A stretch of 64,000 nt of DNA from Patescibacteria group bacterium (GCA_041666485.1 JBAYGW010000002.1:7711-71710), one strand, 5' to 3'; shown: positions 919-50,880, counted from the stretch's first letter. Program-made: numbers and translations. The notes: a model not told the origin generated them from the sequence alone.

Positions 919-3147
919 TTAAGGGGTGATCTCTATTGGTGCTACCTCACGCACAACCGGCAACGCTTCAGCAAAATCTCCGATCCCCGGAGGAGTGTTA
1001 ATTATTATTCTACCGTCATAGAAAATGCGCTCCGCTGCCTGAATATCTTCTACAGTACCAATCCCTGATCGCTGTAAAAATAGCTCGTGCGCAATTACTA
1101 ATCCGCTGATCACCAAATTTTCATCCCCGGCACCGGTATAAAACTCTCCAGTTCCGCCAACTAGTGATCCGCCGGTAGCCTCGCCTACAACTACAAAATT
1201 TCCTGCTACTTTGGAAACATTCGGGTTGATATGTACACTACCTTTAACAATCCATACTACTGAAGGGATATCTTTCAGTTCAGTATCAGCAGCATCAGTT
1301 GGTTGATACGTAATATTTTGTTCAATATACATATCACCGTCCACAACCACCGTGCCTGACGCAGTTTCATTCTGCACTTCAAGTCCGCTTTGAATTTCCG
1401 TCGCGAGATCTACGGTAAGATCGCCCTGGATATGATATACCTTTCCTTGCAACTGAGACAGCCCATTTAACCACAAATTCTGTCCAAGAGTGCCGCCGGG
1501 ATACACCTCTACGACATTACCAAACTTATTTCTGAAGTCACCCGGTAATACTTCCACACGACTGGTAATTCCGTCCAAATCCAGCTTGCCCATGACATTC
1601 GTGTATTTATTGGTGGCTAGCGGCGGTACTAGCGGGTCATATCCCGGTCGTAAATAGTCGGAACCGCTTTCGCTGGTATATCTTTGGATTGCACCGCCCG
1701 TTTGTATTAAAAAGGTGGAATTATAGAAAAGTCCGGCGGTTAAAGGGCTTGTCGGCAGGTTAAATATTTCTCCAGAACCCACTCCTTCCTTTGAATAAAC
1801 ATCTCCCTGCACTGTCTGTAAAAATGGCGCCACGTAGGTCGGCGGTAATTGACTTACACCGGTATAGTCGCTGAAGGATATCCACCCTAAACCTACAGAT
1901 TCATTATAGCACGTTAATCCGATACATTCTGTTCCTCCGCCCGACCAACCATCACCGTCAAACTCCCCCGTATCTATGCTCATTGAAACCCCGTAATCAA
2001 CCGTATCATCATCTGTTGCGTGCATTTTAACCCATCCCCAGTTTTCAAAATGGCCCTTTGCCCCCTCTTTTTGTAAAGAAATGAGTCGCGCCCAGCCCAC
2101 AACATCGCCTAATTGATAATTCCCGTTTGAATCAGCGGCAGCAGTCGCGCTGTCCAGAAATACTTTTGCCGAATAGTCAGGACTTTCAGGATAAGGATTT
2201 GGGTCAAAATCTATCCATCCGATCGGGTTGCCATCAGAAGATTCACCGATCCAAGCATAGCCTGATACATTACCCGAGACAGAATCAACAGATACTTTAA
2301 AATCAGATGTCGCACAAACATTAGCTCCTCCCGCCCCGGCGGTGTTACAGTTCAAGGCAATCCAACCGATATTAGTATCATACAAAACATCCAGTTTGTC
2401 AGTATTACCGATCCAGGCATAACCCTCCAGAGCACCACTGGCCAGATTTACGTCAGTATCAACTGGATCAAATGAAATCCAGCCCAAACCGGTAGTAACA
2501 TTTTCATATGTGCTTGGCGGCAACTGATCATTTGCCAGATGTCCGCCAGCCCAGGCATAGCCTGATACATTATTAGTGGCAAAATCAATGTTTACACCGA
2601 ACTGACGGTTAGTACTCGGCGCCGGTCCCAGCAAAATCCAACCCCAATCCTCATAACCCAAATATTCTCCCGCTTCTTTGATTGATTTTATCCGCGCCCA
2701 ACCGGAAACCTGCCCGGCATAGGGAGATCCGACCGGTTCTACTCTTGCGGAATAATACGGCTGACCCGGAAATGGCTGTGGTGCAAAATCCAACCAACCC
2801 ACGCCCGTAACCGCACCGGAATCATCCAGTATCCCGTTCCAGCTGTAGCCTGTAATATCACCAGACACAGGATCAACGCGTACGCCGTAACGCGTTCCGC
2901 ACCGGCTTTCCATATCCGTTGTGAAATAGTTATAACAGTTGTTGCTGAACCAGCCAATATGGGTAAACTCGGGAGTGTCAATATTCTCTGTTCCGATACC
3001 TGACCAATTCCATCCCGAAACATTTGTTTCATCCCAAGCCGGCTGCGCAGCGACAACTCTATTTATGTTAAAGACCGCCAGAAAAACAAACACCGAAAAA
3101 ATTACGACTGAACTTAATATTATTAATTTTTTTTTGTGTTTTTGCAT
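919..3147 (-). CDS. Large secreted or membrane-anchored repeat protein, 742 aa. It has an N-terminal signal-anchor and about eight aromatic repeats, and lies directly upstream of pilM on the same strand.
   Basis: Complete ORF. The N-terminus MQKHKKKLIILSSVVIFSVFVFLAVF is hydrophobic. Repeated motifs include NVSGYAWIG...GWISFDP, GWIDFDPNP, GWLDFAP and GWARI. I cannot assign a family with certainty. Confidence 0.6.
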   Translation of the reverse strand: MQKHKKKLIILSSVVIFSVFVFLAVFNINRVVAAQPAWDETNVSGWNWSGIGTENIDTPEFTHIGWFSNNCYNYFTTDMESRCGTRYGVRVDPVSGDITGYSWNGILDDSGAVTGVGWLDFAPQPFPGQPYYSARVEPVGSPYAGQVSGWARIKSIKEAGEYLGYEDWGWILLGPAPSTNRQFGVNIDFATNNVSGYAWAGGHLANDQLPPSTYENVTTGLGWISFDPVDTDVNLASGALEGYAWIGNTDKLDVLYDTNIGWIALNCNTAGAGGANVCATSDFKVSVDSVSGNVSGYAWIGESSDGNPIGWIDFDPNPYPESPDYSAKVFLDSATAAADSNGNYQLGDVVGWARLISLQKEGAKGHFENWGWVKMHATDDDTVDYGVSMSIDTGEFDGDGWSGGGTECIGLTCYNESVGLGWISFSDYTGVSQLPPTYVAPFLQTVQGDVYSKEGVGSGEIFNLPTSPLTAGLFYNSTFLIQTGGAIQRYTSESGSDYLRPGYDPLVPPLATNKYTNVMGKLDLDGITSRVEVLPGDFRNKFGNVVEVYPGGTLGQNLWLNGLSQLQGKVYHIQGDLTVDLATEIQSGLEVQNETASGTVVVDGDMYIEQNITYQPTDAADTELKDIPSVVWIVKGSVHINPNVSKVAGNFVVVGEATGGSLVGGTGEFYTGAGDENLVISGLVIAHELFLQRSGIGTVEDIQAAERIFYDGRIIINTPPGIGDFAEALPVVREVAPIEITP

Positions 3148-12794: not shown

Positions 12795-13532
12795 ATGAAT
12801 ATATTAAATAAACTATTACAAAATATCATTGACCTGATTTTTCCTTCAAACTGTTTTGGGTGTGGTATTGAAGGAGTCTGGTTATGCAAAGATTGTATTG
12901 AGAAAATACCTATACTCAACAAGAATAATTGTTTCTGGTGTAATAATAAAGACAATAACATTTGTTTTTCTTGTCAGCAAGAATCAAAATTATCAGCATT
13001 ATTCGTCATTACCGCATATCAGAATCCTCTGTTTCAGGATATGCTGCACAATTTAAAATATAATTTTGCTTCCAGCATTGGTGATACATTTAAACTATTG
13101 CTAATCAAATATTTTGAGCAAAATAAAATTGACATTATCAATAAAGATTCCGTAATCGTTCCTATTCCATTACACAGAAAACGTTTAGCAGAACGGGGTT
13201 TCAACCAGTCAGAACTTATCGGCAACCATATTGCTGAAATATTACAGTTGAAGATTAATCCCAAATTATTAATCAGAAAAAAGAATACAAAATCGCAAAT
13301 GACCCTGAACAGAGCTGACCGGATTCTGAATATGCAGAAGTCATTTGTCTGCCCGGATCCTACCCAAATCAAAGGAAAAGACATTATTTTGATAGATGAT
13401 GTGCTTACTACCGGAACAACAATTAGAGAGGCCGCGCAAGCACTAAAATCCTCGGGCTGCAGGTCTGTAAGCGCTATTGTGCTAGCAAAAGGGGGGTTGA
13501 TAAATATGAAAAATAATGTTAGGATAGATTAG
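12795..13532 (+). CDS. comFC: ComF family protein, a phosphoribosyltransferase-domain competence protein ComFC.
   Basis: N-terminal zinc-finger-like CFGCG...CKDC. HRKRLAERGFNQSELI. PRTase motif DIILIDDVLTTGTT. I moved the start from the track ORF (12750) to the ATG at 12795 because the first 15 codons overlap the clpC terminator hairpin. Confidence 0.75.
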   Translation: MNILNKLLQNIIDLIFPSNCFGCGIEGVWLCKDCIEKIPILNKNNCFWCNNKDNNICFSCQQESKLSALFVITAYQNPLFQDMLHNLKYNFASSIGDTFKLLLIKYFEQNKIDIINKDSVIVPIPLHRKRLAERGFNQSELIGNHIAEILQLKINPKLLIRKKNTKSQMTLNRADRILNMQKSFVCPDPTQIKGKDIILIDDVLTTGTTIREAAQALKSSGCRSVSAIVLAKGGLINMKNNVRID

Positions 13533-13542
13533 TCCAAAAAAT

Positions 13543-13632
13543 GGAGGAGTGCCAGAGCGGTCGAATGGGACAGTCTTGAAAACTGTTAGACCTGCAAGGG
13601 TCTCGGGGGTTCGAATCCCTCCTCCTCCGCCA
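13543..13632 (+). tRNA. tRNA-Ser (anticodon TGA).
   Basis: Manual fold: acceptor GGAGGAG/CTCCTCC, anticodon stem ACAGT/ACTGT with loop CTTGAAA (anticodon UGA), a long variable arm, T-arm GGGGG-TTCGAAT-CCCTC, discriminator G, and an encoded CCA. Confidence 0.85.
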
Positions 13633-13816
13633 TTCGACTCCTCCTCACTATCGCTCGGAGTCGCTCATGGCCTATCGGCCACTCAATTAGTAACATACTA
13701 ATTAACAGCTAAAGTCGAATGCCTCGAGAGAAATTGAGAGGCACTCGCTCGTGACCTATCGGCCACTCATCAAAAACTACTGAGTCGAGTGTCTCGAGCA
13801 TGGCCGAGAGACATAA
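13633..13816 (+). repeat. Array of about three hairpin-forming repeat units in the tRNA trailer (family copy A). It ends in a conserved gene-leader element at 13784-13816.
   Basis: Units begin TCGA(C/A/G)T and contain the inverted repeats CGACTCC...GGAGTCG, GCCTC...GAGGC and TGGCC-tat-CGGCC-A. Similar units recur at 14525-14722 and 15423-15532. Confidence 0.55.
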
Positions 13817-13827
13817 CATATAGATTT

Positions 13828-14070
13828 ATGGAGAAATGGTATATCTATATAGCGCGATGTAAAGATAATAGTATATATACTGGTTTAAGCAGTGATCCAA
13901 ATAAAAGGATAATAAGACACAATGAAGGAAAAGGCGCACTATGGATAAAACAACATGGGGAAGCCAAAATTGTATATACAGAAGAATACGATAATTATCT
14001 GGATGCGCATAGAAGAGAATTACAGATAAAAAGATGGTCACGCAAAAAGAAAGAAGCATTGTATTGTTGA
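13828..14070 (+). CDS. Small GIY-YIG nuclease-superfamily protein (YhbQ-like), about 80 aa.
   Basis: MEKWYIYIARCKDNSIYTGLSSDPNKRIIRHNEG matches the GIY-YIG core (Y.Y.....G..Y.G.T.....R...H). The track ORF starts at a GTG at 13789. The ATG at 13828, just 3' of the conserved leader repeat, is the more likely start. Confidence 0.7.
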   Translation: MEKWYIYIARCKDNSIYTGLSSDPNKRIIRHNEGKGALWIKQHGEAKIVYTEEYDNYLDAHRRELQIKRWSRKKKEALYC

Positions 14071-14108
14071 AGAAAATAAGAAGCACTTTATTACAAAAAT
14101 TAGCACTC

Positions 14109-14129
14109 GGAGAGATACCCAAGAGGTTG
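14109..14129 (+). repeat. A 21-nt copy of the 5' end of tRNA-Ser(GCT) (acceptor plus D-arm). It forms a direct repeat with 14431-14451 and flanks the second GIY-YIG gene.
   Basis: GGAGAGATACCCAAGAGGTTG is identical at both positions. The left copy is followed by two short hairpins, CCAGCC-cgag-GCTGG and CGGCC-ttg-GGCCG, instead of the rest of the tRNA. Confidence 0.6.
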
Positions 14130-14185
14130 CCAGCCCGAGGCTGGTCGGCCTTGGGCCGAAAGGGGCTAGCAAAAAGACAAATAAC

Positions 14186-14452
14186 ATGTATTATGTTTAT
14201 ATAATTCAAAGTAAAAAAGATGGCCGTTTGTACAAAGGTTTTACCTCAGATTTAGAAAATCGATTAAAAGAGCATAAAGAAGGGAAAACAAAGTCAACTA
14301 AAAGTTTCAGACCCTGGAAACTGGTTTACTATGAAGTATTTGTAGATAAAAAGGATGCATTAAGAGAGGAATTATTTCTGAAGTCAGGAAAAGGTAAAAG
14401 CACATTAAAAGAGAAATTAAAAAACTACATGGAGAGATACCCAAGAGGTTGA
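14186..14452 (+). CDS. Small GIY-YIG nuclease-superfamily protein (YhbQ-like), 88 aa. Its last 7 codons and its stop are encoded by the 5' end of the downstream tRNA-Ser.
   Basis: MYYVYIIQSKKDGRLYKGFTSDLENRLKEHKEG is a GIY-YIG motif. The C-terminus ...MERYPRG* is read from atggagagatacccaagaggtTGA, which is tRNA positions 1-22. Confidence 0.7.
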   Translation: MYYVYIIQSKKDGRLYKGFTSDLENRLKEHKEGKTKSTKSFRPWKLVYYEVFVDKKDALREELFLKSGKGKSTLKEKLKNYMERYPRG

Positions 14453-14524
14453 AGGGGCGGGTTTGCTAAACCTGTAGGTCGGGTTTTTCCCGGCGCGAGG
14501 GTTCGAATCCCTCTCTCTCCGCCA
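14431..14524 (+). tRNA. tRNA-Ser (anticodon GCT).
   Basis: Manual fold: acceptor GGAGAGA/TCTCTCC, anticodon stem CGGGT/ACCTG with loop TTGCTAA (anticodon GCU), a long variable arm, T-arm GAGGG-TTCGAAT-CCCTC, discriminator G, and CCA. Confidence 0.8.
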
Positions 14525-14722
14525 CTCGATTCGCGTCTCACTAATTCGGCGCTCACTCGTGGTCTATGGTATCTAACGATACCCCCGACCATTTCATATT
14601 AGAATCGAGTGTCTCGAGAGAAATCGAGAGGCACTCGCTCATGGCCTATTGGCCACTCAATTAGTAATCTAACAACTTTATATATAAGTCGAATGCCCTG
14701 AGTAGTGCCGAAGGGCATAATG
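14525..14722 (+). repeat. tRNA-trailer hairpin repeat array (family copy B).
   Basis: Contains CTCGATTCGCG..., then TCGAGTGTCTCGAGAGAAATCGAGAGGCACTCGCTCATGGCCTATTGGCCACTCAATTAGTAA, which is near-identical to a unit at 13718-13775. It ends in the hairpin GCCCT-gagtagtgccga-AGGGC-ATAATG. Confidence 0.55.
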
Positions 14723-14772
14723 AAGGAAAATCTGCTATAATATAAGTACAGTTTATTATTTATATTACTTAT

Positions 14773-15303
14773 ATGGACTTAGACATTAAAAAACCAGAAC
14801 AGACAACGGAAGACATATCATCTGCTCAAGATGTCGGAGATACCCTGTTGCAATGGAAATTCCCTGAATACGAAGAACATGAAAGAGGAATTGTATGGTA
14901 TGTAATTGCCGGTTTGGTATCAGCAGCATTCTTAACATATGCTATTCTAGTATCAAACTACCTCTTTGCATTAATCGTAGTAATTGTTGACATGATAATT
15001 TTGATCCAGATTAATAGAAAACCGGATCGGATTGATTTTAAGATTACCGATGAAGGATTAATGATTGGTTCCTCTTTTACGCCCTATAGCAACATCAGAA
15101 AATTCTGGATTATCTACAATCCGCCAAAAGTAAAGACTCTATACATCAATTACAAATCAACAATCCGGCCGGACATTACCATACCGCTTGAAAATAAAAA
15201 TCCGTTGCGTGTACGTGAAATGTTGCTTAAATATATTGAAGAAGATTTGGAAAAAGAAGACGAGTCCAATAGTGAACAAATTAGAAAATTACTTAAATTA
15301 TAA
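14773..15303 (+). CDS. Hypothetical membrane protein (176 aa, two TM segments).
   Basis: Complete ORF. Hydrophobic segments VWYVIAGLVSAAFLTYAIL and LFALIVVIVDMIILIQI. No motif I recognise. Confidence 0.5.
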   Translation: MDLDIKKPEQTTEDISSAQDVGDTLLQWKFPEYEEHERGIVWYVIAGLVSAAFLTYAILVSNYLFALIVVIVDMIILIQINRKPDRIDFKITDEGLMIGSSFTPYSNIRKFWIIYNPPKVKTLYINYKSTIRPDITIPLENKNPLRVREMLLKYIEEDLEKEDESNSEQIRKLLKL

Positions 15304-15345
15304 AATTCGCATTACCAAGTTAAGATTTCTGCCCTGCTAAAACAT

Positions 15346-15422
15346 GCGGTCATAGCTCAGTTGGATAGAGCGTAGGATTGCGGATCCTAAGGTCGGAGGT
15401 TCAAATCCTCCTGACCGCACCA
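15346..15422 (+). tRNA. tRNA-Arg (anticodon GCG as I read it; an unusual isoacceptor).
   Basis: Manual fold: GCGGTCA/TGACCGC acceptor, D-arm GCTC-AGTTGGATA-GAGC, anticodon stem TAGGA/TCCTA with loop TTGCGGA, T-arm GGAGG-TTCAAAT-CCTCC, discriminator A, and CCA. Confidence 0.65.
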
Positions 15423-15532
15423 CTCGACTCACCCCGCCAAGGCGGGATTCGCTCGTGGTCTGCGACCACATCATTTTAATAAAGGCATATCAAAATAAAA
15501 TCGAGTGCCTCGAGCGTAGCCGAGAGACATAA
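15423..15532 (+). repeat. tRNA-trailer hairpin repeat array (family copy C), ending in the conserved gene-leader element at 15501-15532.
   Basis: CTCGACTCACCCCGCCAAGGCGGGATTCGCTCGTGGTCTGCGACCAC ... TCGAGTGCCTCGAGCGTAGCCGAGAGACATAA. The last part matches 13784-13816 and sits about 15 nt upstream of the recG ATG. Confidence 0.55.
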
Positions 15533-15546
15533 ATTATCTACGCATT

Positions 15547-17628
15547 ATGGCAACAGAATTATCTACTCCTATATCAAATTTCCCGACAGTAGGCCCCCGC
15601 ACGGCTCAACGCCTAATAAAACTAGGAATTGAAACGGCAGAAGACCTGCTTTTTTATTTTCCTTTCCGATATGAAGATTACAGCAATATATCAGTCATTG
15701 GTGAAGTTCAAAACAATCAGACAGCTACCATAAAGGCTAGAGTTGATTTGATCCGTAATAAGCGTTCGCCAAGAAAAAGAATGATTGTTACTGAAGCTAT
15801 GTTAGGCGACGATACCGGATCAATCAAAGCTGTCTGGTTCAGACAGCCATATCTGACTAAAACCATATTGCCGGGCGATGAACTATTTCTCTCGGGAAAA
15901 ATTGAAGGTGATTTATTTTCATTTCAAATGATTAATCCGATTTATGAAAAAGTAAAATCCATCCCCTTACACACTGCCCGGCTGGTACCGGTTTATCCCA
16001 CCACTTCCGGAATTACCCAAAAACAGCTGAGATTTCTGGTAAATGTGGCTCTACTTGTCGCTGATCATGTTACTGATTGGCTACCAATTTCAATAAAAAG
16101 AAAGTACAACTTTTTACAACTTAAGGAAGCGATTAGGCAAATTCATTACCCTAAAACAAAAGGGTTGCTGGAAGAAGCCCGCGCAAGAATTGGTTTTGAT
16201 GAGTTGTTTCTTATTCAACTTGGTGCGCTAAAAATAAAATCCGATCTTGCTGAAAAAGAAGCACCCAGCATAAATTTTCAAGAAAAAGAAATAAAATCTT
16301 TTGTTAATAATTTGCCGTTTGTCTTGACTGCATCACAAAAGAAATCTTCCTGGGAGATTATTAAAGATCTGGAAAAACACCATCCGATGAACCGGCTACT
16401 GGAGGGAGATGTCGGCTCCGGCAAAACAGTTGTTGCCGCTCTTAGTATACTCAATACGGCATTGAACGGATTTCAAGTAGCATTGATGGCACCGACAGAA
16501 ATACTGGCACAGCAACATTTTGATACGCTCAACCGGCTATTTCAAAAAGAAAAAAGCATCAAACTTTGCCTGCTAACAAGTCACACGGTAAAAATTGGTA
16601 AAGGAACAATGATCAAAAAAACAGACTGCCTTAAACAAATAAGTTCCGGGGAAATTAATGTAGTAATCGGCACCCATGCCATAATACAGAAGAGTGTATC
16701 CTTTAATAATCTGGCTTTTGTCATTATTGACGAACAACATCGGTTCGGAGTGAAACAAAGAGGTGAAATGAAAGTCAAGAATCCAAAAACCGTCAACTGG
16801 GCTCCTCATTTCCTTTCCATGACCGCCACGCCAATTCCCCGTTCTTTAGCGCTGACTGTTTATGGAGACCTGGATTTATCAATAATCAACGAATTGCCTA
16901 AGGGGAGAAAACGGATTTCAACAAGTATCATTCCTAAAGTAAAAAGACTGGCTGCCTACGATTTTATTGAAAAAGAGATTCAGAAAGGGAGGCAAGTTTT
17001 TGTTATCTGTCCTTTAATTGAGGAATCCGATAAATTGGGTGTTAAGGCAGTCACATCTGAATACGAAAAACTGAACAATAACATTTTCCCGAATATTGCG
17101 ATCGGCATGCTCCATGGCAAAATGAAGGCTGATCAAAAAGAAGATGTAATGAAAAAGTTTCTGGCAAATGAATACAGAATATTGGTATCAACATCCGTCA
17201 TTGAAGTAGGCGTGGATGTTCCAAATGCCACTATCATGATGATTGAGGGGGCAGAACGCTTCGGATTGGCACAATTACATCAATTCAGGGGTCGGGTAGG
17301 CCGGAGCACACATCAGTCCTATTGCTTTCTTTTTACTGATCAGGCCGGACCGGATGTGTTAAATAGGCTGGGAGCCTTAGTAAAAAGCCATGACGGTTTT
17401 GCCCTGGCGGAAAAAGACCTGGCGCTTCGGGGACCGGGGGAAGTATATGGCAGCAAACAATCCGGTTATTTCCCCAGTTTAAAAATCGCGAGCTTAACCG
17501 ATTATGAATTGGTGAAAAAAGCCCGACTTGAGGCCGGGCAATTATTAAGAAGCGATCCTCGCCTGACTGAAAATCAGTATATACGAAAAAAGATTACTGA
17601 ACTCACTAAAAATATTCACCTGGAATAA
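15547..17628 (+). CDS. recG: ATP-dependent DNA helicase RecG.
   Basis: 693 aa. Wedge-domain region, helicase motif I GDVGSGKT, motif II IIDEQHRFGV, LSMTATPIPRSL, HGKM...VSTSVIEVGVDVPNA, and QLHQFRGRVGR. Confidence 0.85.
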   Translation: MATELSTPISNFPTVGPRTAQRLIKLGIETAEDLLFYFPFRYEDYSNISVIGEVQNNQTATIKARVDLIRNKRSPRKRMIVTEAMLGDDTGSIKAVWFRQPYLTKTILPGDELFLSGKIEGDLFSFQMINPIYEKVKSIPLHTARLVPVYPTTSGITQKQLRFLVNVALLVADHVTDWLPISIKRKYNFLQLKEAIRQIHYPKTKGLLEEARARIGFDELFLIQLGALKIKSDLAEKEAPSINFQEKEIKSFVNNLPFVLTASQKKSSWEIIKDLEKHHPMNRLLEGDVGSGKTVVAALSILNTALNGFQVALMAPTEILAQQHFDTLNRLFQKEKSIKLCLLTSHTVKIGKGTMIKKTDCLKQISSGEINVVIGTHAIIQKSVSFNNLAFVIIDEQHRFGVKQRGEMKVKNPKTVNWAPHFLSMTATPIPRSLALTVYGDLDLSIINELPKGRKRISTSIIPKVKRLAAYDFIEKEIQKGRQVFVICPLIEESDKLGVKAVTSEYEKLNNNIFPNIAIGMLHGKMKADQKEDVMKKFLANEYRILVSTSVIEVGVDVPNATIMMIEGAERFGLAQLHQFRGRVGRSTHQSYCFLFTDQAGPDVLNRLGALVKSHDGFALAEKDLALRGPGEVYGSKQSGYFPSLKIASLTDYELVKKARLEAGQLLRSDPRLTENQYIRKKITELTKNIHLE

Positions 17629-49222: not shown

Positions 49223-50817
49223 AGCTTTTTGATTATCCCTCTTTCCGCATCAACCGATATCTTATCGCCATCTTTCAACAGTTTATCACAATCTGCTACA
49301 CCGACCACGCATGGTATTTTCATTTCTCTGGCTACAATCGCAGTGTGACAGGTCAGCCCGCCGGCTCCGCCAATCAACGCTGATGCCTTTTTCATGGCCG
49401 GCACTAAATTCGGGTTGGTGTTATGAGCAACCATAATATCGCCCTGCTTCATTTTTTTTATATCTTCTGGTATGTTAACTATTTTTACAATTCCTTTGAC
49501 TTTACCGGGATAAGCACAGGTCCCGGAAAGCTGTTTTTTGGCATAATTTGGCTTTTTCAGATTAATAGATTGCATAAACTGTACCGCCTGTTCTCCTGTC
49601 ATGACTTTATTTGCAAATCCCGTTTTTCCTTTTCGTTGCCAGTAATCAACAGCTTTCTTTAGCCTTTCATTCAGAATATGTGGATCAACCTTACCACCTC
49701 TCAGTACAGTAATTATTTCACGTGATTTTAAAGCCTGAACTTGACTTACCGATAGTCCAAATCTCTTTCCTACTTCTTTAAAAATATTTTCATAATAATA
49801 CATCGCATTGTACAGCGCATCTTTACGGAAACTCTTGATATAGACCATTTGCCGAGCCATTTTTAAGATATTTTTTTCATGCTTTGAAAATCCCATCTCA
49901 CTGGTAAGCCTTTTCTGCTCTTTGAATAAATCATTTCTATCATTTTTCTTTTGATTTAACATCGCTTGCGGATCTTTTCTTTCACGCAAAAATGCCTGCC
50001 AACGAACTAAATAATCTCCCAGAGGATAAGCTGGACCTTTGTATTGATAGGTAATCGGACTAAATTTATAATAATGCTGATTGATACTTCGCTGAATTTG
50101 TGGATCAATTCCTGATAAATTATTTATCAGGCTTTTCAAACTAGACTGGACAAAAACCTCCCTTAGCTTTCTTTTTTTACTAATCATTAATGCAATTTTT
50201 AGAAAGCTTGTTTCCTCCTGATCAAGCAAGCTGCGTTTAACCGGCGAAGTAAGGATGGAAAAAATCCTTGATGCGCTTTCTTGTATTTTTGCTTTGTTTA
50301 ATTGTTTTTGCACTATTTTCAAGATTGCCTTGGTCAACAGTTGTTCTCCGGCATCCACATGCCAACTTACGCTAGTTGCATATCCATGACTTTGCATGTG
50401 AACTTTGCGAATTTCTGCCATGAGTTCAGCAATTTGCAGATTGCTCATTTTTGATAGATTCATTCTTTTCACTCGGTTCATTATTCTGAAGAATTCTTGA
50501 TTTGCCTCCTCAACTTTTTTCATAATTCCCAAGGCCCATTCTGGTTTTTTTATCGCCTTATCTGCTAGATATCTGCACTGTGTATTAAATTCTTTTTGCA
50601 CATAAATCATTTGGGAGAATTCACCGTCAAAATATGTGAAATATTCTTTTTCAAAATTACCTGCCCCCTGTTTTGGATATACAGAAAAAAACGCCTCAGC
50701 CGGAATTTCCATCATAAAGATAGTGTTCTGGGGGATGCCCTCAACCGCTTCCCATATTTTTTTGCTGGTTGTATTAGGTTTTATTCTTTTCTTTTTCATA
50801 TTATTTGGTGCCCCCAT
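49219..50817 (-). CDS. Phosphohistidine swivel-domain (PEP-utilizers) protein, paralog 6.
   Basis: C-terminus GTCAYPGKVKGIVKIVNIPEDIKKMKQGDIMVAHNTNPNLVPAMKKASALIGGAGGLTCHTAIVAREMKIPCVVGV. The track ORF (to 50931) runs into the tRNA-Arg gene. I chose the internal ATG at about 50817 (MGAPNNMKKK...). An alternative start is the ATG at 50799. Confidence 0.7.
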   Translation of the reverse strand: MGAPNNMKKKRIKPNTTSKKIWEAVEGIPQNTIFMMEIPAEAFFSVYPKQGAGNFEKEYFTYFDGEFSQMIYVQKEFNTQCRYLADKAIKKPEWALGIMKKVEEANQEFFRIMNRVKRMNLSKMSNLQIAELMAEIRKVHMQSHGYATSVSWHVDAGEQLLTKAILKIVQKQLNKAKIQESASRIFSILTSPVKRSLLDQEETSFLKIALMISKKRKLREVFVQSSLKSLINNLSGIDPQIQRSINQHYYKFSPITYQYKGPAYPLGDYLVRWQAFLRERKDPQAMLNQKKNDRNDLFKEQKRLTSEMGFSKHEKNILKMARQMVYIKSFRKDALYNAMYYYENIFKEVGKRFGLSVSQVQALKSREIITVLRGGKVDPHILNERLKKAVDYWQRKGKTGFANKVMTGEQAVQFMQSINLKKPNYAKKQLSGTCAYPGKVKGIVKIVNIPEDIKKMKQGDIMVAHNTNPNLVPAMKKASALIGGAGGLTCHTAIVAREMKIPCVVGVADCDKLLKDGDKISVDAERGIIKKL

Positions 50818-50880
50818 GAGGAATCCCCGCCAGAGGCGGGTGCGCCTCGGGCGCAGAACCTTTAACTTAATACTCCAGAT

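Follow-up and report, generated by a model that had tools for sequence, protein, structure and literature searches.

The 64-kb (64,000-nucleotide) window analysed here, the whole stretch with a G+C content of 41.7%, derives from a 157-kb metagenome contig of a Patescibacteria-group organism (ENA ERZ27249449, k141_1528268) and carries, within its gene for tRNA-Ser(GCT), a compact unit encoding a GIY-YIG nuclease-domain protein of 88 amino acids (aa), hereafter g2 (Table 1). The sequence GGAGAGATACCCAAGAGGTTG, corresponding to tRNA positions 1–21 (S1), is found exactly at 14109–14129 and again at 14431–14451, where it opens an intact tRNA-Ser(GCT) recognized by both ARAGORN and Rfam; an exact 21-nucleotide (nt) repeat anywhere in 64 kb has a chance expectation of about 5e-4 by our own arithmetic, and the left region had no further match anywhere in the window. 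Directly after the left copy stand two hairpins with perfect 6-bp stems, CCAGCC-CGA-GGCTGG (14130–14144) and TCGGCC-TTG-GGCCGA (14145–14159), jointly termed H, and the unit continues through a 7-nt stretch (S2'), a spacer, the g2 open reading frame (ORF) and the regenerating copy of tRNA 1–21. The repeat, the hairpins and the ORF between the copies had been noticed in a first-pass annotation of this DNA, as had a second GIY-YIG paralogue (g1) following tRNA-Ser(TGA), and exact matching, hairpin searches and Pfam profiles bear all of them out.

Two details of that annotation needed correction. The exact 21-nt repeat stands, but the duplication extends beyond it, since the AAGGGGC that follows the hairpins reaches tRNA position 28; the left copy in full is tRNA 1–28, split by the two GC hairpins after position 21. 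Likewise, the end of g2 is indeed supplied by the downstream tRNA, but through six full codons instead of seven: the 22-nt overlap comprises the third base of a Met codon, six codons (ERYPRG) and the stop, a TGA that is tRNA 20–22 and straddles the end of the 21-nt repeat (TG/A). AAGGGGC as merely a ribosome-binding site was considered and rejected, as the corresponding bases at other loci match each locus's own tRNA. An origin of the hairpins by palindromic fill-in at a break was set aside as well; the flanking sequence bears no relation to their arms, and almost the same pairs are found at different tRNAs.

Table 1. Features of the tRNA-Ser cluster and related elements in the window
Feature	Position	Strand	Basis
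Candidate cluster promoter, sigma-70-like TTGATA-17-TAGGAT with TG, upstream of tRNA-Ser(TGA)	13497..13525	+	Weak consensus match
Intact tRNA-Ser(TGA), with an empty site on its 5' side	13543..13632	+	ARAGORN, Rfam, relatives
tRNA trailer repeat module between tRNA-Ser(TGA) and g1	13633..13827	+	Repeat comparison
g1, 80-aa GIY-YIG paralogue	13828..14070	+	Pfam GIY-YIG, E=4e-16
Left flank of the insertion, ancestrally the leader of tRNA-Ser(GCT)	14082..14108	+	Same sequence in relative L088
S1-left, displaced original tRNA positions 1–21	14109..14129	+	Exact repeat
H pair, two GC hairpins of 15 nt each at the left end of the unit	14130..14159	+	Hairpin search
Whole inserted unit, 322 nt, at tRNA position 21/22	14130..14451	+	Filled versus empty comparison
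S2', AAGGGGC, tRNA 22–28, pseudo-tRNA resumed after the hairpins	14160..14166	+	Sequence identity
g2, 88-aa GIY-YIG ORF, UPF0213/Slx1-like	14186..14452	+	Pfam GIY-YIG, E=2e-18
Regenerated intact tRNA-Ser(GCT)	14431..14524	+	ARAGORN; Rfam tRNA, 55.7 bits
Single GC hairpin CCCGCC-AA-GGCGGG in the trailer of tRNA-Arg(GCG)	15433..15446	+	Hairpin search
ORF-less relative, pseudo T-arm and 3' end downstream of tRNA-Arg(CCG), with an H pair in the T-loop (50826–50855)	50790..50880	-	AAGGTTC, H pair, GATTCC..GGGGCACCA

Against Pfam PF01541 (cut-off 22.6 bits), g2 scores 66.8 bits and g1 59.4 bits, and the two proteins are 38% identical. The catalytic residues Y5, Y16, R26 and H30 and the metal-binding E62 are invariant in 35 sequences that include both. 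By profile, the nearest solved structures are UPF0213 protein BH0048 (1zg2, 9e-17) and EF2693 (1ywl, 1e-13), followed by SLX1 chains, and g2 has the stand-alone domain of about 80–100 aa that characterizes UPF0213/prokaryotic Slx1-like proteins. Escherichia coli YhbQ is another stand-alone GIY-YIG protein of this type. Among the invariant and near-invariant columns after E62 in the 35 sequences, there is no C-terminal Asn of the kind that marks the UvrC/homing-endonuclease branch (PMC1564403), and g2 has no second domain or DNA-binding module: the GIY-YIG domain covers residues 1–71 and is followed by the tRNA-encoded tail.

A word-indexed search returned 649 relatives of g2 at E≤1e-5, mostly 79–93 aa long and from Patescibacteria, while an exhaustive library yielded 10,379 cluster representatives at E≤1e-3. 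Many of the homologues have C-termini that read like tRNA 5' ends, and the over-called N-terminal extensions of several database entries are translated hairpins. NCBIfam gave nothing above its cut-off, PADLOC matched no known defence family and PHROGs returned a weak 'homing endonuclease' match only. Carriage by phages is unlikely because a scan of viral contigs found just three relatives of g2, none with an adjoining tRNA.

Empty and occupied sites among relatives

The first-pass annotation had read the locus as tRNA-Ser(GCT) entered by an element that regenerated the interrupted 5' end, to be checked against an empty site in a related genome. Such a site is present in L088, a locus reached via the neighbouring ComF gene (a metagenome scan with ComF gave only two loci): here tRNA-Ser(GCT) is uninterrupted, 94/94 identical to that of the window and directly preceded by TTTAGCACTC, the window's left flank, and the locus has no hairpins, no g2 and no g1. 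This uninterrupted, identical tRNA supports the reading, and the window differs from the empty site by a precise insertion of 322 nt at tRNA position 21/22. Of the relatives found, L088 is the closest (ClpC, 95.7% aa identity and synonymous divergence (pS) 0.49; ComF, 83.5% and pS 0.45), L005 and L007 being more distant from the window (ClpC, 85% and pS 0.77; ComF, 64.5% and pS 0.67). The presence of the element is thus discordant with the host tree, the closer L088 lacking g1 and g2 and the distant lineage carrying them. For the same genome pairs (window versus L005 and L007), pS is 0.41 for g2 and 0.34 for g1, figures that come from small genes with few sites counted. The lower pS and the discordance with the host tree mark these patchily distributed elements as younger than the backbone, which therefore implies horizontal spread or precise loss.

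Among occupied loci, L003 has a g2 that is 99% identical and a left side as in the window, and L004–L007 have a g2 that is 88% identical, with the left side present and A16T shared by both 21-mers. In L004–L007 the hairpin stems are unchanged and only the loops differ; divergence is also seen in the 7-mer behind the hairpins and in the spacer. Over the 51 nt of S1-left and H, the window and L007 differ at three positions, at one of which the tRNA has changed too; under the synonymous rate so few differences have P=1.6e-8, so both the displaced tRNA stub and the hairpins are under constraint. The ratio of nonsynonymous to synonymous substitution rates (dN/dS) is 0.08–0.10 for g2 against L007 and 0.14 for g1 against L005; this is purifying selection, and the proteins have therefore been kept functional. 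None of the relatives has the ORF without the duplication, an arrangement that would have spoken against insertion. An assembly artefact is excluded because the same arrangement recurs in five independent assemblies (L003–L007) and the architecture in isolate genomes (L013, L039, L046 and L049).

Counting the g2 insertion, the two Ser tRNAs have four distinct sites at which relatives differ in what is present or absent. The g1 gene is found in L003–L006 and is missing from L007 and L088. Of the three further sites, one is in the anticodon loop of tRNA-Ser(TGA), where L004–L007 and L088 carry an ORF-less insert of the same design, with a pseudo-5' copy and hairpins upstream of that tRNA, and the window is empty. 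L003 and L088 additionally have ORF-less GC-rich blocks between repeated tRNA 3' ends, and L003 has a third GIY-YIG gene with a tRNA 3' end copied behind it.

Several observations accompany these sites. The pseudo-tRNA-Ser(TGA) 5' copy of L088 (4764–4990) is split by at least four hairpin-forming inserts, where L007 has none that are extra and L004–L006 have one; spare tRNA copies seem to go on acquiring inserts of this kind. The GC-rich blocks are about 140–175 nt long and apparently structured (L003, 1296–1650; L088, 5110–5250 and 5400–5548). They follow tRNA-Ser(GCT) in L003 and L088 and tRNA-Ser(TGA) in L088, between repeats that span the T-loop to CCA, and one block is common to both loci; they may be related to the 3'-type elements, as versions that do not code for protein, or represent separate small-RNA cargo. 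In L004 the gene for a 538-aa large serine recombinase (959–2575, minus strand) lies against the 3' side of tRNA-Ser(GCT), which it overlaps as called, and the region downstream of this tRNA in L004–L007 is without synteny to the window, which suggests that an integrative element of an unrelated kind occupies this tRNA too.

Behind each tRNA of the window's cluster, tRNA-Ser(TGA), tRNA-Ser(GCT) and tRNA-Arg(GCG), comes a shared trailer module (13633–13827, 14525–14730 and 15423–15546) that opens with (C/T)TCGA(C/T)TC directly after CCA and contains hairpins such as CGAGTGYCTC..GAGAGGCACTCG and TGGCC-TATY-GGCCA. Its 16-nt motif CTCRCTCRTGRYCTAT occurs four times against 0.22 expected, and a similar trailer lies behind the displaced tRNA-Gln 3' end of a distant Parcubacteria locus, L055. 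Gene calls near these elements are unreliable: g1 is uncalled on the source contig, and its homologue is called in L004 (192–668) and L006 (3453–3929) as a 158-aa protein starting inside tRNA-Ser(TGA). As the left tRNA copy is in frame with g1, we considered that g1 once ended in the tRNA and rejected the idea; the ancestral spacer of L088 and L007 intervenes, and the chance of being in frame is 1/3.

Mini GIY-YIG genes at tRNA genes across phyla

With one genome taken per species, we surveyed the best 80 of at least 471 loci, comprising 89 GIY-YIG hits from Patescibacteria, Bacteroidota, Ignavibacteriales and Melioribacter, Omnitrophota, Planctomycetota, Verrucomicrobia and others, cultured isolates included. 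Just over half of these mini GIY-YIG genes (46/89) abut or overlap a same-strand tRNA. The ORF ends −36 to +20 nt from the start of such a tRNA in 32 cases, 21 of which have their stop inside the tRNA, and begins −1 to 58 nt past the tRNA end in 14; another 14 lie at most 300 nt from a same-strand tRNA, and 27 occupy loci without a tRNA. Ten of the ORFs that stop inside the tRNA overlap it by 10 nt, with TAG at tRNA 8–10 in the two that were read (L065 and L084). The combination of a 5'-end target with a mini GIY-YIG gene, singled out as unusual in the first-pass annotation, is instead the rule across a large family.

The architecture of the window recurs throughout this family. Exact copies of tRNA 5' ends, 13–38 nt long, stand ahead of the ORFs, those before upstream-type ORFs running from tRNA 1–13 up to tRNA 1–28, and downstream-type ORFs are followed by an exact copy of the tRNA from the T-loop to the 3' end. 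All 23 of the 5' duplications examined end within 0–2 nt of tRNA +1 (G−1 for tRNA-His), and 3' duplications are less exact. At the upstream-type loci that were read, the tRNA copy gives way directly to one or two GC hairpins, after which 6–10 nt of the local tRNA follow in L019, L026, L038, L043, L046 and L051, as AAGGGGC does in the window. One subfamily has a hairpin in place of the anticodon arm, and older copies are diverged pseudo-tRNAs in which the hairpins are still present. GC hairpins are 7.6-fold enriched beside the ORFs and have a single orientation, YCNGCC coming first and GGCNGR second.

Hairpins and proteins also recur at different tRNAs. Near-identical hairpin pairs are found at position 13 of tRNA-Tyr in L026, in tRNA-Ser(CGA) of L011 and at position 21 of tRNA-Ser(GCT) in the window; L038 and L046 have an identical 20-nt hairpin beside proteins that are merely 57% identical, and the ORFs at tRNA-Gly in L065 and tRNA-Ala in L084 encode proteins that are 79% identical. 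L052 contains two 100% identical units in tandem with a 323-nt period, and L049 and L069 contain arrays of ORF-less pseudo-tRNAs.

Such arrays lie upstream of an intact tRNA in L049 (1400–1990), L069 (1560–1985), L048 (1730–1950) and L036 (1750–1965), the GIY-YIG gene being downstream of that tRNA. Their periods vary (five Cys units of 99 nt, three Pro units of 108 nt and others), each unit includes an upstream AT-rich stretch, and in L048, L049 and L069 a GC hairpin replaces part of the tRNA. A downstream-type subfamily (L040, L055, L062 and L070, at about 1960–2330) has a conserved stem, CTTTCGCYAARGC, between the tRNA and the ORF, and in L040, L055 and L070, the loci that cover the downstream flank, its inverted complement follows the ORF, which is thus bracketed by inverted repeats. 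Six relatives from Verrucomicrobia and Chthoniobacterales (L020, L023, L029, L030, L041 and L056; 40–45% identical) have no tRNA in their 4-kb loci and may form a branch that is not tRNA-associated, possibly a housekeeping one.

Proposed mechanism and rival explanations

We propose, at a probability of about 0.6, that window positions 14130–14451 are a copy of a widespread family of tiny selfish elements that reside inside tRNA transcription units and spread by nuclease-driven, homing-like copying, the nuclease being more likely the driver than the passenger it had been taken for. The comparison with L088 establishes insertion into the tRNA with regeneration of the gene; from the sequences, we infer how this may have come about. 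Each unit is built of one or two strand-oriented GC hairpins, a few tRNA bases, a GIY-YIG gene of 80–90 residues and a tRNA 5' copy from the exact +1. In the window, the unit lies in the D-loop of tRNA-Ser(GCT), the old 5' part survives as a pseudo-tRNA stub, and the intact tRNA rebuilt downstream also gives the nuclease gene its last codons and stop. The element would be read from the tRNA cluster promoter, and silencing by the host would cost the tRNA. On the plus strand of 13400–14800, the only promoter-like site is the one upstream of tRNA-Ser(TGA) (three such sites against 3.1 expected), and there is no terminator-like site; a single upstream promoter-like site and no terminator make co-transcription of g2 with the tRNAs plausible.

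The nuclease would break an uninterrupted tRNA gene in a conserved loop, and the break would be repaired from the occupied locus with tRNA 1–x as the left and the remainder of the tRNA as the right homology arm, a repair that would copy H, the ORF and the regenerating 5' piece into the cut tRNA. The hairpins would mark and destroy the cleavage site in the stub. The observed order, from stub to H, short tRNA piece, ORF, 5' copy and the rest of the tRNA, is that expected from double-strand-break repair. Short arms around H would let H alone copy into spare tRNA copies, which fits the hairpin-riddled pseudo-tRNAs, and repeated cutting of the rebuilt tRNA with misaligned repair could produce tandem arrays and ORF-less derivatives.

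A number of points weigh against this proposal. The nuclease activity and specificity of g2 are predicted, and the protein is a catalytic domain alone, lacking a DNA-binding module, unlike characterised GIY-YIG homing endonucleases. In the occupied allele hairpins interrupt the stub, but the rebuilt tRNA does not differ from that of the empty site, so a nuclease that recognizes sequence would be expected to cut its own locus as well. Simple homing leaves unexplained both the move to a different tRNA while the two tRNA copies stay local and the placement of 23/23 5' duplications within 0–2 nt of +1. The promoter matches the consensus weakly, the survey took in the best 80 of at least 471 loci, and the hairpin covariation (pairing in 108/108 cells and compensatory changes in 5/12 pairs, over nine hairpin pairs and seven tRNA types) comes from a set picked by eye and is partly circular. 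Strong purifying selection and long residence would fit a host-useful gene equally well. A structure-guided or tRNA-templated step is possible, and a bolder form of the proposal, which we regard as speculative and rather unlikely, would make these ~320-bp units the smallest autonomous bacterial mobile elements known so far: a bare Slx1-like domain, guided by DNA or RNA structure in place of a DNA-binding domain, would cut at cloverleaf loop borders, and the 5' end would be rebuilt from +1 on a folded tRNA strand or a mature tRNA template.

Four other explanations were weighed. Mini GIY-YIG genes might be host-beneficial genes parked in tRNA operons, acting as structure-specific nucleases in transcription–replication conflicts or R-loops at tRNA genes or as tRNA-related RNases, with the pseudo-tRNA pieces and arrays as collateral scars. 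The dN/dS of about 0.1, retention of the genes over a dS of about 0.5, the tandem pseudo-tRNA arrays beside the genes in L049 and L069 and the mainly verrucomicrobial subfamily with no tRNA in its loci would all suit this idea, as would the maintenance of tandem rDNA by eukaryotic Slx1 and the fusion of a bacterial Slx1-like domain to a TrmH-like tRNA methyltransferase (PMC1564403). However, the closest relative, L088, lacks both genes and has a pristine site, g1 and g2 are less diverged than the flanking host genes, loci can hold several paralogues, close relatives differ in tRNA isotype and PADLOC matched no known defence family; we consider the explanation unlikely. Insertion through RNA or through cloverleaf-folded single-stranded DNA, either by fill-in templated on mature tRNA or by structure-specific cuts at the acceptor-stem base or loops, would account for the exact +1 start of the 5' duplications (G−1 in tRNA-His) beside less exact 3' ones, for junctions at cloverleaf loops or stem-loop borders and for hairpins that all point the same way on the tRNA strand and admit a G–T pair, and the nearest characterised relatives of g2 are structure-specific nucleases. 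Yet there is no reverse transcriptase, ribozyme or Rfam match, the intact tRNA is contiguous and needs no splicing, and the +1 boundary could be an inherited internal junction of the unit, so we give this route little credence.

A passenger cassette moved in trans by a site-specific recombinase in the Campbell manner, with the 21-nt tRNA segment as attachment site and the GIY-YIG protein playing no part in mobility, would leave the tRNA-segment direct repeat and regenerated tRNA that are the classic integrase signature; a circular S1-H-S2'-ORF molecule recombining within S1 would give the observed order, and the L004 serine recombinase gene abuts this very tRNA. What makes it quite improbable is that no recombinase is among the called genes within about 6 kb to either side on the window contig, that the constant partner in the surveyed loci is the GIY-YIG ORF with its hairpins, and that repeats of 13–38 nt copied locally from many isotypes would call for a separate attachment site each. 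The first-pass annotation had also allowed for the remnant of an ordinary tandem tRNA duplication, to which an unrelated intervening ORF or an assembly artefact may be added. The left copy does extend past 21 nt to position 28, and some loci, such as L081 and L013, keep most of the pseudo-tRNA, but the empty site in L088 has a single tRNA with the same leader, the structure recurs in five independent assemblies and in isolate genomes, and random duplications would not be expected to yield the family-wide regularities; we regard this origin as very improbable indeed. For an insertion sequence or transposon, we found neither a transposase domain nor an inverted repeat bracketing the window unit, and the duplication length is not fixed (13–38 nt), unlike the target duplications of such elements. 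For a group I or II intron, no Rfam intron family matched at E≤1 in 13000–16000 or at E≤0.1 in L003 and L088; in these three sequences Rfam recovered tRNAs only, with no family for the hairpins or the GC-rich ORF-less blocks.

A full-text literature search found no description of a mini GIY-YIG element nested in a tRNA gene, and the locus is apparently one member of a large undescribed class of nuclease-driven selfish elements at tRNA genes. The tRNA genes of cellular genomes in several phyla thus host tiny nuclease elements, for which the comparable case until now has been SegB of phages. The nuclease-driven reading offers a concrete candidate role for UPF0213/prokaryotic Slx1-like proteins, which have had structures but no function for some twenty years, and explains recurrent oddities of annotation: reading frames that run into tRNA genes, N-termini called too long because hairpins are translated, and pieces of tRNA. 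A structure-guided step is indicated by the exactness of the +1 boundary and the conservation of the hairpins, and such a step could have mechanistic and biotechnological interest; were the structure-guided, smallest-element form true, it would supply a function for the long-orphan UPF0213/YhbQ family and a new mechanism of insertion.

Comparison with known systems

In the Campbell model, integrase-borne islands and prophages insert into tRNA genes, a duplicated segment restores the gene and a fragment remains at the far end; Williams reportedly treated such integration sites in tRNA genes in 2002. Such islands and prophages run to kilobases and bring their own tyrosine or serine recombinase, and the tRNA part that they duplicate is usually the 3' one. 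The window unit shares with them the tRNA-segment direct repeats and the regenerated tRNA, but it is 322 nt long and encodes no recombinase, the part it duplicates is the 5' one, beginning at +1, and hairpins stand at its junction.

Within the same phylum, GIY-YIG ORFs have been described in non-intron insertions in the rRNA genes of the Candidate Phyla Radiation (CPR), mostly at the tops or bases of stem-loops (PMC11270868). Compared by description, these resemble the window unit in placing GIY-YIG ORFs in structured-RNA genes and differ in that the host is rRNA, no duplication or regeneration of the host gene is reported and the ORFs were judged to lie outside homing. Group I introns, some with homing endonuclease genes, are likewise mobile insertions in the tRNA genes of Patescibacteria (PMC13011429, 10.1101/2025.07.03.662931), but they are ribozymes of the anticodon loop that are spliced out, and their few endonucleases are HNH proteins, whereas the window's tRNA is restored at the DNA level. 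At the protein level, g2 belongs by profile to the same family as the UPF0213/Slx1-like proteins of known structure (1zg2 and 1ywl) and has the same minimal size. The 2006 superfamily survey treated stand-alone Slx1-like proteins as vertically inherited putative repair enzymes (PMC1564403); we found no report in the literature of the link to tRNA genes or the mobility seen at g2-type loci.

The closest known analogue of the window element is SegB of phages T4 and T6, a free-standing GIY-YIG homing endonuclease gene within a tRNA gene cluster (PMC2330249, PMC13096335), which cuts inside tRNA genes at a T-loop motif and undergoes recombination-dependent tandem amplification (PMC13096335). Both SegB and g2 are GIY-YIG genes embedded among tRNA genes; SegB spreads and amplifies by homologous recombination, giving tandem repeats of tRNA plus nuclease, and enrichment near tRNAs, of many isotypes, extends to its homologues. 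As a protein SegB is much longer, has a DNA-binding region and belongs to the homing-endonuclease/UvrC branch, in contrast to the 88 residues of g2, a catalytic domain only, in the Slx1/UPF0213 branch. SegB resides in phages and g2-type elements in cellular chromosomes, and we found no report for SegB of nesting inside a tRNA, a regenerated end, hairpins or a stop inside the tRNA. As in SegB-like homing, the window element is present at a site that is precisely empty in L088 and has diverged less than the genomic backbone around it.

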